Assembly: GCF_964059055.1 (NCBI RefSeq)
Contig: NZ_OZ060386.1
Coordinates: 420,001 to 452,000 of the forward strand
DNA: 32,000 bases
Direction of reading: 5' to 3'
From: Buchnera aphidicola (Neophyllaphis podocarpi)
GTDB lineage: Bacteria > Pseudomonadota > Gammaproteobacteria > Enterobacterales > Enterobacteriaceae
Positions 141-22,239 of this stretch are shown here, in pieces. The translations under genes and the position numbers were made by a program. How positions within the stretch are numbered: the stretch's first letter is position 1; every line of letters begins with the position of its first letter. The notes beneath the pieces are model-generated. The model searched no databases, was not told the DNA's origin, and was given only the letters and a program-made list of their open reading frames with translations.

Positions 141-1132
141 ATGACAAATTATATAAATAGCATAGAATTTTATAAAAACGCTTTTTTTAAAAAAAATTTT
201 TATTTTTTAATAGGTAATGAAACTAAAGTTACGCAGGAAATCACAGAAAAAATAATTTTAAATTGTAACAAAAAAAATTTTAACAAAATTAAAAACTTCT
301 ATGTAGAAGATCATAAAATTTTTAATAAAATATTTTATAAAATTCATGAACAAGATTTTTTAGAAAAAAAACAAATTATAATAATCAAAACTGATATAAA
401 GTCATTTAGCATAAAGATAAAAAAAAAATTCAACACTTAGTATCAATAAAAAATAAAAACATAATATGTATTATTTTTTTTGAAAAAAATATATTAAATA
501 ATAAAAATTATTTAGAAATGTTAAAAACAAATCAAGACATAGTTTTTATAAAATGCAATAAACCCAAAATAAACGAATTATATGAATGGATTAAATTTAA
601 ATCTAAAAAACTAAAAATAAAAATTAGCAAGATAAATCATGAGTTAATAATAAAAAATTATATAGATAACTTTACAGGTTTAATTAATTTTATAAATATA
701 ATATCTCTTATATGGCCAAATAAAAAAATAAATAGAAAAAAAATTCAACAAATTATAGAATGTGAAAATAGATTTACATACTCACAATGGATTAATTATA
801 TTATTAAAGGAAACCAAGAAAAAACTATAAAAATTCTACAATATTTTAAAATACAAAATTATAGTCCGGTAATATTAATTAGAGTATTACAAAATTTTAT
901 ATTAAATATTATAAATTTAAAAAGAAAAACTAAATATTGTATTTATGAAAATTATTTAAACAAAAATATTTTAACAAAAAATAATAATTTAGAAGAAAAA
1001 TCAAAAAAAATAAATAATAAAAAATTATATAATTCAATAAAATTAATAAGTTTAATAGAATTAAAAATCAAAAGAAATTTTAAGAAAAATGTTTGGTTAG
1101 AACTAATTAATTTATCATTAACATTATGTTAA
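141..1132 (+). pseudogene. holA: DNA polymerase III delta subunit (HolA), interrupted by a single frameshift in an A10 run at 419-428; possibly still expressed through slippage
   Basis: ORF 141-440 (frame 3) matches the HolA N-terminus (FYFLIGNETKVTQE vs E. coli YLLLGNDPLLLQES). ORF 518-1132 (frame 2) matches the C-terminal two thirds (LIWPNKKI / SPVILIRVLQNFILNIINLKRK / VWLELINLSLTLC vs LLWPDGKL / EPVILLRTLQRELLLLVNLKRQ / VWAELEGLSLLLC). I read frame 2 as stop-free from 410, so the two frames overlap across the A10 tract. One added A gives a continuous product of about 330 aa. Confidence 0.85.
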
Positions 1133-1139
1133 TAACTAA

Positions 1140-1793
1140 ATGAAAATTATGAAAAAAAATACTTTAAATATAATTTTAGGAGGAACTTTTGATCCTATTC
1201 ACTATGGTCATTTAAATATATCAAAAACATTAGCAAAAGAACTACAATCAAAGAAAATAACTTTAATACCCAATAAAAAATCATTAAATAAAATTAAGTC
1301 TACTGCATCTATAAAACATAGATTAAAAATGATTAAATTAGCTATAAAAAATAATAAAATGTTTAATTTAAATTATTTAGAAATAAAGTCAAATAATACA
1401 TTTTATACTATAGATACATTAAAAAAAATAAGAAAAGAAATAGGTTATAAAAAATCTTTAGCTTTTATAATTGGAGAAGATAATTTAATTGAATTATATA
1501 AATGGCATAAATGGAAAAAAATATTGAAAATAAGTCATTTAATAGTTTATAGAAGAAAAATTATTAATAAAAAAAATAAAATTTTTTTTGAAAAAAAAAT
1601 AACTCCTTATATAACAAATAAAAAAAATATGCTAACTAATCATGCGTTTGGATTAATATTTATATCTAATGCCCCTTTTATTAATTTATCTTCAACACAA
1701 ATAAGAAAAAATATAAAAGAAGGCATATCATGCAATAACATGCTACCTAAAAAAGTATTAAATTACATTAATAAAAAAAATATATATTTCTAA
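1140..1793 (+). CDS. nadD: Nicotinate-nucleotide adenylyltransferase (NaMN adenylyltransferase)
   Basis: The 217-aa ORF has the N-terminal motif ILGGTFDPIHYGHL (E. coli FGGTFDPVHYGHL) and the C-terminal SSTQIR motif. It lies directly downstream of holA, as in E. coli. The start could instead be the ATG at 1149. Confidence 0.9.
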   Translation: MKIMKKNTLNIILGGTFDPIHYGHLNISKTLAKELQSKKITLIPNKKSLNKIKSTASIKHRLKMIKLAIKNNKMFNLNYLEIKSNNTFYTIDTLKKIRKEIGYKKSLAFIIGEDNLIELYKWHKWKKILKISHLIVYRRKIINKKNKIFFEKKITPYITNKKNMLTNHAFGLIFISNAPFINLSSTQIRKNIKEGISCNNMLPKKVLNYINKKNIYF

Positions 1794-5133: not shown

Positions 5134-6222
5134 ATGCAAAAAATATTTAATATTTTAAAACCTGGGGTTCTTAATGGGTATGAAGCAAATAAATTGTTTA
5201 ATTTTGCAAAAAAAAATAAATTTGCTATACCGGCTGTAAATTGTATAAATACAGATTCAATTAATTCAACTATGGAAGCAGCCAGCAAATCAAATTCTCC
5301 GATAATTATTCAATTTTCTCTAGGAGGATCTGCTTTTATTGCAGGTAAAGGCATAAATAATGCTAACTATAAAAATCATCAAATATCTATTTTAGGAGCA
5401 ATATCAGGTGCATATCATGTACATTTAATGGCTGAACATTATAATATTCCTGTAATTCTTCATACTGATCATTGCAATAAAAAATCACTACCATGGATTG
5501 ATGGATTAATAATTAAAGGAGAAGAATTTTTTTATAAAACTGGTAAACCATTATTTACATCTCATATGTTAGATTTATCTGAAGAAAATATAGAAGAAAA
5601 TTTAAAAATATGTAAAAAATATTTTAAAAATATGAATAAAATTGATATGGCTTTAGAAATGGAATTAGGATGTACTGGAGGAGAAGAAGATGGAATAGAC
5701 AATTCTAAAATTAAAAAATCTTTTTTATATACAAAACCAAAAGATGTAAATTATGCATTTGAAAAGTTAAATGAGATTAGCGAAAATTTCACTATAGCTG
5801 CATCTTTTGGTAATGTTCATGGAGTATATAAACCAGGAAGCATAAATCTTAAACCATCTATTTTAAAAGAATCTCAAATTTATGTAAGTAAAAAACAAAA
5901 AATAAAAGATAACAAACCACTTAAATTTGTATTTCATGGTGGATCAGGATCTAATATAGAAGATATACAAAAATCTATAAAATATGGAGTAATAAAAATA
6001 AATATAGATACAGATATACAATGGGCTACATGGTTAGGAGTATTTAAATATTATAAAAAAAATAAAGAATATTTAAATAAACAAATAGGGAACAAAAAAA
6101 ATAAAAATAGTCCTAACAAAAAATATTATGATCCTAGAAGCTGGATACGTTATGCACAAAAATCTATAATAAATAGATTGAATATTTCATTTGAACAAAC
6201 AAATTCTAAAAATACTTTATAA
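5134..6222 (+). CDS. fbaA: Fructose-bisphosphate aldolase, class II
   Basis: The 362-aa ORF contains ...AIPAVNCINTDSINSTMEAA...PIIIQFS..., the HTDHC metal site, FGNVHGVYKPG and VFHGGSGS. It follows pgk, as in E. coli pgk-fbaA. Confidence 0.95.
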   Translation: MQKIFNILKPGVLNGYEANKLFNFAKKNKFAIPAVNCINTDSINSTMEAASKSNSPIIIQFSLGGSAFIAGKGINNANYKNHQISILGAISGAYHVHLMAEHYNIPVILHTDHCNKKSLPWIDGLIIKGEEFFYKTGKPLFTSHMLDLSEENIEENLKICKKYFKNMNKIDMALEMELGCTGGEEDGIDNSKIKKSFLYTKPKDVNYAFEKLNEISENFTIAASFGNVHGVYKPGSINLKPSILKESQIYVSKKQKIKDNKPLKFVFHGGSGSNIEDIQKSIKYGVIKINIDTDIQWATWLGVFKYYKKNKEYLNKQIGNKKNKNSPNKKYYDPRSWIRYAQKSIINRLNISFEQTNSKNTL

Positions 6223-7238: not shown

Positions 7239-10200
7239 ATGTTTAATATATATTATTCTAATCAATTAAATATTCTAATTAAAAAAATAGATAAAGTTAT
7301 TAAAAAAACACCAGCAAAAAATTTATTAAAACCTGAAATTATATTAGTTCCTAGTACAAAATTAATACAACCAATACAAATACTAATAACTAAACATATA
7401 GGAATATGCGCTAATATAGAAATTATGTTATTTAAAAATTTTTTGTTAAAATATTTTAACATATTTTTTTTTAAAAGAATATTTTTGGATGATGAATTAC
7501 TAACATGGAAATTGTTTTCTTTAAATAATTTTAAAAAAATAGTAAAAGATAATAAAGAAATAAAAGAAAAAGAAATTATAAATTATGAATTACAAAATTT
7601 TAGCTTAGCAAAATATATAGCAAAATTATTCAAACAATACATGTTATATGATCCTTTATTTTTAGAAAAAATATCAAACAAAAAAAAAATAAATAGTCAA
7701 TATATATGGCAAATAAAATTATGGAAATGTATTTTTAATAAAAAAAATAAAAACAATAAAGAATCATTTAATACATATAATTTTTTTGAAAAAGAGATTT
7801 TAAAGTCTAAAAAAAATAAATTAATTCCTAAAAGATTTTTTTTATGTTGTATAAATTTTTTAGAACCTATTTATATTATAATATTAAAAATTTTAAATAA
7901 GTATAGTGATATTTATATACTAATTAGTAATAGCATTTTTTATAACAAAAAAACTACTAATTTTACAGAAAGTAAGATCAAAGGAAAAATATTTAAAACA
8001 ATTTCATTAGTAGAACAGAACAAAAATATATTTATATCTAAATTAAAATGTAAAAATATAAAAGAAAAGAAATTCTTCATAAGAACAGAAAAAAATATCT
8101 TAAATACAATTAAAAAAGAAATTTTAAATAAAAAATTTAATTCTTTATTTAATGGTAATAACATAAACAAAAAAGAGATAAAAGAAAATAATACTATAGA
8201 ACTTGAAGATAGTTCTTTTTGTGTAAAAGCAACAAATAATATAAGAGAAGAAATAGAAAAATTATATGAAAATATTAAAAAAATTTTAAATAAAAAAAAC
8301 GATATTTTACCACATGAAATTATTGTGATGAGCAATAATATTAAAAAATACTCTCATATTATAAAATCAGTTTTTAAAAAAAACTTTAAAGTTAAAATTA
8401 TAGATGAAAAATTTAGTGATAAAAGTATATTATTTAATAATTTTTATAAGTTAATGAAATTAGGAGATAGTCAACTATCTAATATTCAAATAATTGAGTT
8501 TTTAGAAATGGATAGTATTTCAAAAAAATTTAAAATTAATCAAGAAGAATATAAATTATTATATAAATGGATAAAAGAATTAGGTGTACAATGGGGTTTT
8601 GATCAAAAGCATATAAACAAAAAAATTAATTTAAAAAATATAAATATTAATACATGGAAAGTAGGAATCAAAAAAATTTTATTAGGATATGCTATGGATC
8701 AAGATAATATATTTGATAATATAATACCTTATTATGAACCTAATAATTTGTTTAATAGGTTAATTGAAAAGTTTATAATTTTATTGATAAAATTAAACAA
8801 ATGGCGAAAAATTTTTCAAAAACCCAAAACAATAAAATATTGGATAAAAAAATATCAAAAATTTACTAGTGATTTCTTTGATAAAAAAGAAGATTCAAAA
8901 AAAGAACTAAAACTTATAGAAAAAACTTGGAAAAAAATTTTGTATAATGGACTAAAATCCAAAAATAAAGATAAAATATCAATTAATCTATTAAGAGAAG
9001 AAATATTAAATAATATAAATAAAAAATCAAATAATCATATAATAGATGGTTCAATATGTTTTAGTAATATAAATTATTTAAGCTATTTTCCTTTTAAAGT
9101 TGTTTGTATAATAGGTCTAAATCAAAAATTTTTTATCAAAACAACAATTAAAAATAAATATTATTTTTTAGTAGATTCAATTAAAAAAATAAATAATAAC
9201 TTAAATTATTTAAATTATAATAAAATATTTTTTTTAAATTCATTGATATCTGCACAAAAAATATTTTACATTAGTTACATAAAAAAAAACTCTCAGAATA
9301 TAATAAATACTACTTCAGTATTAAATAAATTAATAAATTATATAAAATATAAATTTTATATAAAGAAAAAATCATTAAAAGAAAATAAAATAAAAAAAAT
9401 TAACACAAAAAAAATAAATAAAATAAGCAAAAAAAATATATGTTATAAAAATAAATATTTAATAGAAAAACAATTCTATAATATAGAACAAATTGAAAAA
9501 AAAATATCTTTTAAAAATCTGTTAAAATTTTGGAAAAATCCAATACGTTTCTTTTTTAATTATAGATTACAAATTAAAAATTTTTATCAAATAGAAAACT
9601 TATATGAAAATGAAATATTTCAACCAAATAATCTAGATATTTATAAAATCAACACAGAGATCTTAGATAAAATTTTATATAAAAAAGATATAAATATACT
9701 TTTTAAAAAATATAAAACAAACAATCAATTACCAATAGGTAAATTTGGTGAAATAATATGGAACAAACAAATAAAAGAAATGGAACAAATAGCACAAAAA
9801 ATAAATAATTATGTAGATATCAATACAGAAAAATACATAAATTCAGAAATTAAGTTACTAAGGATCGAAAATAATTATTTAAAAACATATAAAACAGGAT
9901 TAGTACGCTGGAGACCAGGTATATTAAATATATATGACGGATTATCTTTATGGCTAGAACATCTTGTGTATTGTCTTTCAGGAGGATTAGGAAATAGTAT
10001 TTTTATTGGACAAAAAAATACAAAATGGTATTTTTCAAATATAAATAAAGAAATAGCTTTTAAGAATTTAAAAAAATATATTAAAGGATATAAAGAAGGT
10101 TTAATGACACCAATCCTATTAACAAAATCTGGAGAAAAATGGTTAAGTACTATATATAATACTAAGAATAATAGTTTATCGAAAAATAATCAAGTACATA

Positions 10201-10391: not shown

Positions 10392-13300
10392 ATGCAAAAG
10401 AAAATAGATATAATAAATATCAATATTAATGAAGATATGATAATTGAATCATCAGCAGGAACAGGTAAAACTCATGCTATATCATTAATATATTTAAAAT
10501 TATTATTAGGTATAGATTATCCTAAAAGTTTACCAGTAGAAAAAATTTTAATTATAACATTTACTAATTTAGCTGTAGATGAGCTAAAAAAAAGAATTAA
10601 AAATAATGTATATGAATTAAAACTAGCTTGCTTTAAAAAAAAAGTAATATTAAAGAAATAAATGAACTATTCAAAAAAATAAAAGATATAAAAAAAGCTA
10701 TATCTTTACTGACAAAAGCAGAAAATACATTAGATAATTCTTCAATATATACAATACATTCATTTTGCAAGAAAATATTAGAAATAGATATATTTCAACA
10801 TGAATATATAACTACTAATAATAGAATTATTTATAATGAAGAAGAGATATATGAAACTGCAACAACAGACTTCTGGAGAGAAAATTTTTATAATTTATCT
10901 ACTTCATTAACTAATATTATACATACAGAAATCAAAAATCCTAAAAAGCTATTAAATAATATAAAACCTTATTTAAATAATACTTATGTAGATATAAAAT
11001 ATCCTAATTATACAAAATATCAAATAAAATATATAAATAAAAAAATATTATCTAATATAAATATTTTTAAAAAATATTGGATAGACAACGAACTAATTTT
11101 AATAAAAAATATAATATCAAAAATAAAAAATAAATTTTATAAAAAAACTATTATAAACTATTCAAAAAAAATCTCTAATTGGGTAAAAAATGATGTTTTA
11201 TATTATAAAATACCTAAAGAATTAGAATATTTCTCAATAAAAGAAATAAGTAAAAAAAATAAAATTATTAATAGTGAAGAATTATTTTTTTTAAAAAATA
11301 TAGAAAATTTTCTAAAAAAACCTATATTTCTAATAGATATTATATATGCTAAATCTATCAAAGAAATAAGGAAAAAAATAAAAGAAATTAAAAAACAAAT
11401 TTCATTAATAGAATTTAGTGACATAGTAAGATTATCAAAATATATATTAAAAAATAAAAATAAATCAAAAAATATCTTAAAATATATAAGAAAAATATAT
11501 CCAATAGCTATAGTTGATGAATTTCAAGATACAGATAATGAACAAAATATAATTTTAAAAGAAATATATATTAATAGTAAAAATGTTATATTAATATTAG
11601 TAGGAGATCCAAAACAATCTATATATAATTTTAGAGGAAGTAATATATTTAATTATTTCAATATAAAATCAAAAATCAAAAACCATTATTATTTAAATAA
11701 TAATTGGAGATCATCAAAAAGCATGATAAGTAGTATAAACTATTTATTTTCAAGAATAAAAAAACCTTTTTTTATAAAAGAATTAGAGTTTATTCCAGTA
11801 AAATATACTAAAAATAGTAATAAAATAAAAATAGAAGTAAATAATAAAGAATATTCTGCTTTAAAAATTTGGATGTATAAAAATTGCAAAACAAATATAA
11901 AAGAATATACTGAATGGTCATCAAAAATATGTGCTAAAGAAATAAATTATTTATTACAAAAAAGTATTGAAGGTAAGGCTATATTAAAAAAAGGAAAAGT
12001 AACAAAAAAAATAAAAGAAAAAGATATAGTTATATTAGTTAGTAACAAAAACGAAGCTTTAAAAATACAACAAGCTATGAATAAATACAATATAAATACA
12101 TTATATTTATCAGAAAAAAATAGCGTATTTTCAACATTAGAAGCAAAAGAAATATTATGGATATTACAAGCTTTAGCTAATCCCCCTTCAAAAAAATTTA
12201 TAAATCAAGTATTACTTTCTAGTATTTTTCAAAATAAAATAAAATCTTTAGACAAATATGATAATAATAAAAAATATAATTATCAGAATTTAGCTAAAAA
12301 GCTTTATAAATATAAAATTATATGGAATACACTAGGAATATTAGAACTAATAAAAAATTTAATAGAGTACATGTTAAAAAATAATTTAAATAAACATTTT
12401 ATATCAAAACAAAAAATAAATAATTTTTTACATTTAGGAGAATTAATTCAAAAAAAATCTGAAAAAATTAAAAATAAAACTTATTTAATATATTGGATTC
12501 AAAGAAAAATAACAAATACAAAAAAAATAAAAGAAGAAGAAATTATAAAAAACAATGATTTAAATTCTGTAGTTATTAATACCATACATAAATCTAAAGG
12601 AATGCAATATCCTATAGTATGGTTTCCTTTTGCTATTAATTTTCTAAAAGTTCAAAATGGAACTTATTATAATCCAAAAACTAAAAAAAATACTTTAAAT
12701 TTCAAAGTTACAAAAAAAAATATCAATAAACATATAAATGAAATGATGTCAGAAAAATTAAGATTAATATATGTAGCATTAACAAGATCAATATGGCACT
12801 GTAGTTTGAGTATATCACAAGAATTAATCAATGATAAAAATATAAAATATTATAAAAAGTACAATATAAAATATTCTAGCCCTATAGGTTATTTGCTAAA
12901 AAATAATAAAGATTTAACAATTAATGAAACAATTAATAAATTAATAAGAAAAAAAAATAGCAATATAGAAATATTAACAAATAATTTATATAAAAAAGAA
13001 AAAATTACAGAAATTAAATCAGATATGATAGATTTTAAAAAAACAAATACTGATATAAATTTAATAAAAAAAGAAAAATGGAGTATTTTAAGCTATTCAA
13101 ATATAAAAAAAAATAATAAATTAGAGTTTAATAATAAAAAATTAAATAAAAATATAAAAAATAAAAATAATTTAACAATTAAAAACTTTCCTCAAGGATT
13201 AAATACTGGTTTATTAATGCATGAAATTCTAAAAAAAATAAACTTTAAACAAAAAATAAAAATAAAACTAATACATCAAATATTAAAAAAATACAATTTT

Positions 13301-13876
13301 AATTATAAATGGTTAAATATAGTTTTACAATGGACTAAATATATTTTAAATAAAAAATTAAATATTAAAAATTTATATCTATGTAAAATTAAAGAAGAAA
13401 ATTTAATAAAAGAATTAAACTTTTATTTGCTTATAAAAAATAGAATAACTGAAATAAAGTTTAATGAAGTAATTAAAAAATTTGATAATATATCAAATGC
13501 TTCTAAAAATATAAAATTTACTGATACAAAAGGAATTTTTTACGGAAAAATTGATCTAATATTTAAGTGGAGTAAAAAATATTATATTCTTGATTACAAA
13601 TCAAACTGGATAGGAGAAAACAATCAAAATTATAAATTTGATTATTTAATTAAAGAGATAAAAAAATATAGATATGATATACAATATCACATATATAGTT
13701 TAGCTCTACATAGATATTTAAAAAGTAAAATAAAAAAATATGATTTCAAAAAATATTTTGGAGGTATATTTTACTTCTTTATAAGAGCAGCTAAAAGTAA
13801 AAATATAAAAGAAGGGATATTCTATAAAATACCTGAAGAAAATTTAATTAAAAGTTTAGATAAATTATTTGATTAA
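10392..13876 (+). pseudogene. recB: Exodeoxyribonuclease V beta subunit (RecB helicase-nuclease), interrupted by a single frameshift in an A9 run at 10635-10643
   Basis: ORF 10392-10661 (frame 3) carries the RecB N-terminus and Walker A motif (ESSAGTGKTHAI; ITFTNLAVDELKKRI). I translated frame 2 by hand from 10637 to the listed ORF 11723-13876 and found no stop. That stretch encodes SSIYTIHSFCKKIL, AIVDEFQDTD, LVGDPKQSIYNFRG and NNWRSS. The downstream ORF has TIHKSKGMQYPIVW, LIYVALTRS and the nuclease motif GKIDLIFKWSKKYYILDYKSN. One added A in the tract gives about 1161 aa. Confidence 0.88.
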
Positions 13877-21960: not shown

Positions 21961-22239
21961 ATGAAAAAAATAAACAAAATATTAACAGTAACATCTATTC
22001 TTAAAAATGAAATTATTTTAGATATACGATCTGAAGAAGAAAGAGAAAAATTTCCATTAAAAATAAAAAAACAAAAAATAAAATACATGTCTTTTTATAA
22101 TTTACATAAAAATTTTAAAAATTTAGACCAAAAAAAAACATGGTTATTATACTGTAATAGAGGAGTAATGAGTAAAATACAAGCAATATATTTATATGAA
22201 TTAGGTTTTAAAAATATAAAAATATATAAAATTAATTAA
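21961..22239 (+). CDS. thiI: Stand-alone rhodanese domain homologous to the C-terminal domain of tRNA sulfurtransferase ThiI
   Basis: The 92-aa ORF LDIRSEEEREKFPL...LDQKKTWLLYCNRGVMSKIQAIYLYELGFKNIKIY aligns with the E. coli ThiI C-terminus (IDIRSIDEQEDKPL...[35 protein letters not shown]), including the persulfide Cys. It sits divergent from ispA, as thiI does in E. coli. The 118-bp upstream spacer has no room for the THUMP and PP-loop domains. Confidence 0.85.
   Translation: MKKINKILTVTSILKNEIILDIRSEEEREKFPLKIKKQKIKYMSFYNLHKNFKNLDQKKTWLLYCNRGVMSKIQAIYLYELGFKNIKIYKIN

Follow-up and report, generated by a model that had tools for sequence, protein, structure and literature searches.

The gene holA, which encodes the delta subunit of DNA polymerase III, is interrupted by a single frameshift within a run of ten adenines (A10) in the genome of Buchnera aphidicola (Neophyllaphis podocarpi). 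Based on the comparisons described below, we assign a probability of roughly 70% to the interpretation that this is a fixed frameshift in a functional holA, and that full-length delta is made by slippage on the tract. The stretch analyzed, hereafter the window, comprises the 32,000 nucleotides (nt) at positions 420,001–452,000 of contig NZ_OZ060386.1 (RefSeq assembly GCF_964059055.1); it has a G+C content of 20%, and it belongs to an ENA genome of 559,180 bp. By sequence-level and evolutionary criteria, holA adds a further case to the Tamas/Wernegreen class, i.e., to the endosymbiont genes that carry a frameshift in a poly(A) tract and are conserved in that state.

The A10 run (AAAAAAAAAA) occupies positions 419–428 of the + strand and, as read directly from the sequence, has T on both flanks. 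Only the A10 at 7680–7689 equals it in length, and no homopolymer in the window is longer. The parts of the locus are as follows.

141–440, + strand: holA 5′ segment, a frame-3 open reading frame (ORF) of 99 amino acids (aa), from ATG 141 to TAG 438–440
410–437, + strand: overlap of the open frames 3 and 2 (28 nt), bounded by TAG 407–409 and TAG 438–440
419–428, + strand: A10 slippery tract, inside the 28-nt overlap; the frames would be joined if the mRNA gained one A or if the ribosome shifted by −1
428–1132, + strand: holA 3′ segment, in frame 2, with delta residues 97–330 followed by TAA

The 5′ ORF encodes delta residues 1–96, and its final three residues (FNT) are out of frame; as part of the restored protein, this segment aligns with the N-terminal end of both E. 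coli delta and the TIGR01128 model. In frame 2, the TAG at 407–409 is followed by an open frame that extends from 410 to the TAA at 1130–1132. The change of frame must fall within 410–437, because this is the only stretch in which frames 3 and 2 are both open. When one A was inserted into the tract, the sequence became ...IKIKKKIQHLVSIK... and encoded a 330-aa protein (...SIKIKKK-IQHLVSIK...). Positions 141–1132 are interrupted nowhere except at the A10 frameshift, and this pattern of a single indel is that of the Tamas/Wernegreen class. A/T runs of ≥ 9 nt are present in 1.9% of the 28-nt intervals of this sequence, so the coincidence of the A10 with the overlap is not a by-product of AT-richness. 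In a preliminary description of the window, the A10 had been placed at 419–428, the stop of the first frame at TAG 438–440, and the open part of frame 2 at 410–1132, and the gene had been reconstructed with one additional A; we obtained the same coordinates on re-reading. One detail required correction: the frames had been said to overlap only across the A10, but the overlap is 28 nt long (410–437), with the A10 inside it.

On profile and alignment evidence, the restored protein is the holA product, the delta subunit. It scored 90.9 bits against TIGR01128, the holA equivalog (cutoff, 80), in one stretch in which residues 20–327 matched profile positions 1–314 of 316, and the C-terminal Pfam domain of delta (PF14840) was found over residues 216–330 (E = 3.5e-16). 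A phmmer search against PDB retrieved E. coli delta (1JQJ, 1JR3, and 8VAM) with E values of about 1e-30 (~9e-31). In the alignment with E. coli delta, residues 20–330 correspond to residues 20–332 and are unbroken across the junction at 96/97; K96 and I97, which lie on either side of this junction, do not vary in the alignment of Buchnera deltas. The gene had already been named holA in the preliminary description, and the TIGR01128 score above the cutoff and the collinear alignment bear this out; the pairing of VFIKCNKPKI with VQVTCQTPEQ proposed there falls within the same E. coli alignment. The order leuS-lptE-holA-nadD is conserved in gammaproteobacteria, including E. coli. This order was also found in relatives, in the gene lists of the Logan assembly of SRR29340286, of CP135042, and of locus L006, with a gene of 161–180 aa between leuS and holA. 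In the window, the two neighbors of holA are the following.

2–130, + strand: 3′ end of lptE, the upstream neighbor, a frame-2 ORF that runs off the start of the window
1140–1793, + strand: nadD (NF000839, 200 bits), the downstream neighbor, used as a synteny marker and rate control

We then considered whether the A10 is real. The window genome was compared with CP135042 (host N. varicolor, 559,524 bp) and CP135039 (host N. podocarpi, 559,476 bp), both of which are Illumina NovaSeq 2 × 150 assemblies from another laboratory (PMC11193766), and the Logan re-assemblies of SRR29340286 and SRR29340287 served as independent copies of the holA locus. In each of the five sequences, the tract is A10 and the two stops fall at identical positions; the sequences come from three genomes and two laboratories, and their assembly involved at least two pipelines. 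In CP135039, both stop positions are retained as TAA. Over 20.5 kb (5929–26410), the identity between the window genome and CP135042 is 99.4%, and in this region the lengths of the A/T tracts of ≥ 9 nt are equal in 23 of 23 cases, with one tract broken by a substitution. Homopolymers are classic sites of length miscalls, and if the true genome had A11, this single extra A would suffice to leave holA intact. A homopolymer error in the assembly had been raised in the preliminary description, together with the comparison of tract length and frame in sister strains as a check. The agreement of the five sequences, which include Illumina 2 × 150 data, and the concordance of the 23 long tracts argue against this explanation; moreover, the other A10 of the window, in recC, is in frame, and recB, which is described below, shows the same pattern as holA. 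On these sequence comparisons, we conclude that the A10 frameshift is genuine and that an assembly or sequencing error is very unlikely. A related explanation places A11 in part of the chromosomes. Buchnera cells are polyploid and contain many chromosome copies. Replication slippage, to which long A tracts owe their hypermutability (PMC1088944; PMC3017870), might keep a minority of the copies at A11, and these would provide an intact holA. However, the A11 allele was seen in no assembly compared, a minority allele would still require maintenance, and such heteroplasmy would be added to slippage at expression and would not replace it. We therefore regard this as very doubtful.

The main comparison for the constraint on holA was that of the window with CP135039, which are 95.1% identical over 11.1 kb. 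The frameshift is common to three genomes that are up to 5% diverged, and because it is common to lineages ∼5% apart, it predates their split; holA has been conserved without decay, as is characteristic of the Tamas/Wernegreen class. Between the window and CP135039, 10 indel events were found in 737 bp of spacers and 3 in 10,446 bp of coding sequence. In the 992 bp of holA there were none, where ∼13 would be expected at the spacer rate if spacers and holA were equally indel-prone, although spacers may be more so. The 53 substitutions in holA introduced no new stop. When the same base changes were re-placed at random in the gene, the mean number of premature stops was 4.6 and the probability of none was 0.005; when only the part downstream of the frameshift was considered, this probability was 0.013. 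The ratio of non-synonymous to synonymous substitution rates (dN/dS, Nei-Gojobori) was 0.39 for holA (N part, 0.23; C part, 0.47), 0.30 for nadD, 0.19 for asd, and 0.10 for yhgN. As judged from these sequence comparisons, both sides of holA have been under constraint since the frameshift, and it is difficult to account for this constraint if the downstream frame is not translated.

The alternative that holA is a pseudogene that the deletion inactivated, whose function has been lost or is dispensable and in which there has been too little time for decay to show, was weighed against these values. The ORF is formally interrupted, the pieces are labeled hypothetical in RefSeq, and holA, holB, and dnaX have been lost in some endosymbionts. 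In addition, the dN/dS of holA is the highest of the local genes, and the changes between the window and CP135042 in holA (8 non-synonymous and 3 synonymous) are all in the downstream part. Nevertheless, lineages 5% apart share the frameshift and yet have accumulated neither the indels nor the stops expected, the dN/dS is well under 1 and near the value of nadD, and no second holA copy was recovered from these genomes by homology search. The persistence of the tract points in the same direction. Both frameshifted tracts (holA and recB) are unbroken in all strains, whereas three of the five in-frame A tracts of ≥ 9 nt (at 1591, at 5208, and the recC A10 at 7680) are broken by substitution in CP135039; with few tracts compared, this difference is suggestive. 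Taken together, we consider that a pseudogene is quite improbable.

A further explanation that accepts constraint on both parts is that holA is a split gene, in which the two ORFs are translated separately, the second from an internal start such as ATG 518 or by reinitiation after the TAG at 438–440, and the products assemble into a working delta. Gene callers do report a 204-aa ORF from ATG 518 and a 219-aa ORF that starts further upstream. There is no Shine-Dalgarno sequence before ATG 518, but this is no objection because most genes of the window are also without one. Promoter-like matches were not above the shuffled expectation and no terminators were found inside holA, results that are uninformative at 20% GC. 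We examined the position of the break in an AlphaFold2 (AF2) model based on a 3-sequence alignment. The mean predicted local distance difference test (pLDDT) score was 58; residues 20–200 had scores of 65–87 and domain III was below 50. Domains I–II (residues 20–200) show the expected alpha/beta pattern, and the junction lies in domain I, in a helix (91–102) with strands 78–84 and 108–114 on either side. Because the junction sits inside domain I in this medium-confidence model, the separate pieces are unlikely to work. A start at ATG 518 would also drop residues 97–126, including a core strand; this segment has no indels or stops between strains, and I97, K106, I111, N120, and K122 are the same in every Buchnera delta that was aligned. 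Moreover, no split delta was found in the homology search. We therefore hold separate translation of the two parts to be very improbable.

From these observations, the following course of events can be proposed for a functional, frameshifted holA. The ancestral codons were probably ATA AAA AAA AAA ATT, with an in-frame A11, and replication slippage would have removed one A to give the A10. During transcription, RNA polymerase would re-transcribe one A on the A10:T10 hybrid in some transcripts, and the A11 mRNAs formed in this way would be the likeliest route to delta. Slippage of tRNA-Lys by −1 on A-AAA-AAA may contribute a smaller or comparable share, and both routes would yield the same protein (...IKIKKK-IQHL...). 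The full-length 330-aa delta would then result only when the tract is read one base longer, in a minority of expression events. The truncated 99-aa peptide would make up most of what is produced, so that the output of delta would be a fraction of transcription. Slippage of the transcriptional type is consistent with what is known of such tracts. A runs of ≥ 9 fill the RNA:DNA hybrid and allow realignment, a condition for efficient transcriptional slippage (PMC1088944; PMC4256274; PMC5574713), and in Buchnera, insertions during transcription cluster in A/T runs and rise exponentially with the length of the run (PMC5574713). In the tssM genes of enterobacteria, frameshifting amounts to ∼20–25% at A11 and 15–25% at A9 (PMC4256274). 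By analogy with these yields at A9–A11 in other enterobacteria, the view of the preliminary description that the dose of delta would be throttled appears reasonable. The slippage that had been put forward there as the other alternative is favored indirectly, by a frameshift older than the divergence of the strains, by the lack of indels and stops, and by the dN/dS of 0.39.

The same conserved frameshift might instead be decoded mainly by the ribosome, through −1 frameshifting or sliding on unedited A10 mRNA. In the zero frame, the sequence ATA AAA AAA AAA TTC contains two overlapping X-XXY-YYZ heptamers (A-AAA-AAA at 419–425 and 422–428), and the product would be identical to that of A11. According to PMC1851650, C-AAA-AAA alone gave 25–60% −1 frameshifting in overexpression constructs in E. 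coli, and the authors credited ribosomal frameshifting over transcriptional slippage. On the other hand, we detected no stimulatory hairpin (the downstream 92 nt gave −9.3 kcal/mol, z = −1.23 vs. shuffles) and, within 20 nt upstream, no Shine-Dalgarno-like motif that contains GG, so that neither the downstream structure nor the upstream element of a dnaX-type stimulator was found at holA. An A run of ≥ 9 that fills the RNA:DNA hybrid favors transcriptional slippage, and the recB tract (A9 and then G) is likewise a classical site of transcriptional slippage. We therefore consider decoding mainly by the ribosome rather unlikely. The two routes cannot be distinguished by the sequence, but the transcriptional route appears likelier, with the ribosomal route as a real contributor or alternative.

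It is also conceivable that the A10 is held by selection as a recoding device, either to keep a low set-point for delta (and RecB) or because the 99-aa fragment has a role of its own. This is hinted at by the tract itself, because it is hypermutable and a single step would revert it, yet its length has stayed the same, without interruption, over ∼5% divergence, while three of five in-frame tracts were broken by substitutions. A low set-point, if true, would apply in a polyploid, slowly replicating symbiont, and the 99-aa fragment as a product would be analogous to one of the two forms of tssM1. We judge selection of this type to be improbable.

Several points weigh against a functional holA that is rescued by slippage. 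The rescue is deduced here from the DNA sequence, and a transcriptome-wide survey of errors in Buchnera saw no restored reading frame (PMC5574713). Among the genes compared, holA has the dN/dS that indicates the most relaxed constraint. A single pairwise comparison supplies most of the statistical power, and the assumption of equal indel rates mentioned above must be added to these reservations. Finally, holA has been lost in some Portiera, which are extremely reduced symbionts, and its essentiality cannot be assumed; the argument from essentiality in the preliminary description is softened to this extent, since symbionts of this type have dispensed with the gene altogether.

The window contains a second gene with the same pattern, recB, the parts of which are as follows.

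10392–10661, + strand: recB 5′ segment, in frame 3, 89 aa
10635–10643, + strand: A9 tract in recB, overlapping 10637–10658, where frames 3 and 2 are both open
10637–13876, + strand: recB 3′ segment, in frame 2

With one A added, recB encodes a 1161-aa RecB, and the gene is split in the same direction as holA. The restored RecB scored 858.5 bits against TIGR00609 (cutoff, 696), with residues 6–1160 matching positions 2–1175 of 1175 in one stretch. Both CP135042 and CP135039 have the same A9 and are split in the same way. The chance figure for the recB overlap that corresponds to the 1.9% of holA is 2.8%, and the joint chance for the two genes is ∼5e-4. The mechanism proposed for holA would operate in the same way at the A9 of recB.

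To place holA among known systems, we compared it with poly(A)-frameshifted genes in other bacteria. Tamas and co-workers reportedly sequenced transcripts of poly(A)-frameshifted endosymbiont genes in a 2008 paper in PNAS. The reference to that work in the preliminary description was correct, and the class is cited here through PMC3017870 (Williams and Wernegreen, 2010) and PMC6260861. The former, which cites Tamas et al. (2008) and Wernegreen et al. (2010, MBE), describes genes of Buchnera and Blochmannia, dnaX and dnaG among them, whose poly(A) frameshifts have been kept without decay and are credited to transcriptional slippage (PMC3017870). Like the members of this class, holA belongs to an AT-rich obligate insect endosymbiont, carries one 1-nt indel in an A tract of ≥ 9 nt in a gene that is otherwise intact, and is conserved across diverged lineages; replication genes are also affected in Blochmannia vafer (dnaX and dnaG; PMC3017870). 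It differs from the earlier cases in the gene, in the host lineage (Neophyllaphis), and in being known here only as DNA. In the literature searched, we found no paper that describes holA in a frameshifted state or a case in the Neophyllaphis lineage.

In Thermus thermophilus, the products of another clamp-loader gene, dnaX, are also set by slippage of RNA polymerase on an A run (A9; PMC1088944). There, the genomic frame encodes full-length tau and slippage gives the shorter gamma, so that two useful products are made (PMC1088944), whereas the genomic frame of holA encodes a 99-aa stub and slippage would be needed for the only recognizable product. Citrobacter rodentium tssM1 (A11) and Yersinia pseudotuberculosis tssM3 (A9) resemble holA in that a premature stop follows just after the run of A, and A residues added to the mRNA restore the full-length protein at ∼15–25% (PMC4256274). 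Unlike Buchnera, however, the hosts of these genes are free-living enterobacteria, and the truncated and full-length forms were both shown to be needed (PMC4256274). The lysine-codon slippery heptamer of holA and its −1 shift also resemble those of E. coli dnaX (A-AAA-AAG) and of pDEST17 (C-AAA-AAA; PMC1851650). E. coli dnaX is likewise a clamp-loader gene, but its shift is stimulated by a Shine-Dalgarno-like element upstream and a hairpin downstream, neither of which is detectable at holA. Genes of this type have been described since 2008, and the present case opens no new question and would not surprise a specialist. Its significance is that a core replication gene, that for delta, and a recombination gene, recB, have persisted for a long time in the frameshifted state in an obligate symbiont, which bears on the extent to which error at the level of expression buffers genome decay.

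The public annotations of the holA locus are discordant. The submitter's annotation in ENA gives a 330-aa “DNA polymerase III subunit delta” (CAL4324504.1) that is 100% identical to our reconstruction, GenBank gives a 219-aa delta (XAJ85062.1), and RefSeq gives a 204-aa hypothetical protein (WP_367676071.1 / WP_343188518.1). The 204-aa RefSeq protein of the window contig is identical to the window ORF at 518–1129, and in CP135042 and CP135039, holA is annotated as fragments of 219 or 204 aa. No ordinary ORF for the 330-aa product was found in the gene-position index, which fits a coding sequence joined by hand. The frameshift had thus already been bridged by the submitter of the genome, and the 330-aa annotation shows that it was noticed earlier. 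With three annotations in circulation (330-aa delta, 219-aa delta, and 204-aa hypothetical protein), gene-content tables for Buchnera could wrongly score holA and recB as lost. Exact-protein look-ups of NadD and of the N-terminal fragment of RecB from the window gave no match.

We also searched for the state of holA outside the three genomes. Two scans of the contigs of the genome collection, one with an alignment and one with the single protein, gave no matches to holA relatives. The Buchnera from Phyllaphis fagi (OZ060370.1) has an intact holA with TCA AAA ATT at the homologous site. Because this distant Buchnera has TCA AAA ATT there, the A tract of holA is specific to the lineage studied here. 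The P. fagi gene carries an in-frame A10 of its own at nt 226–235, and its locus is arranged leuS-holA-tusA-asd, without lptE and nadD there.

Other differences among the strains were as follows. Between the window and CP135042, cyoB differs by an in-frame indel of 15 bp (∼25989) and the spacer between nadD and asd by one of 16 bp, and indels of 1 bp occur in spacers only; the positions of the differences are ∼1934, 3286, 6291, 22242, and ∼25989. Apart from cyoB, the coding DNA is without indels in this comparison. The Logan assembly of SRR29340286 differs from CP135042 at two sites in nadD (window-equivalent positions 1501 and 1619). At both, the deposited CP135042 matches the window, and the differences may reflect polymorphism within the sample or a difference in assembly. 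The in-frame recC A10 (7680–7689) is the same in CP135042 and is interrupted (AAAAAGAAAA) in CP135039.

Apart from thiI, the remaining ORFs of gene size in the window match the models of their families and show no split comparable to those of holA and recB. The thiI gene is represented only by a 92-aa ORF at 21961–22239, which matches the C-terminal rhodanese-type domain (TIGR04271), and because the upstream spacer to ispA is only ∼118 bp long, the rest of thiI is gone. On the + strand of the whole window, A runs greatly outnumber T runs (A8, 61 vs. T8, 7; A9, 23 vs. T9, 5). The T9 runs lie mostly at ∼19–28 kb, where the genes are on the − strand, and because they mostly coincide with − strand genes, the long A runs are lysine-codon tracts of the sense strand.

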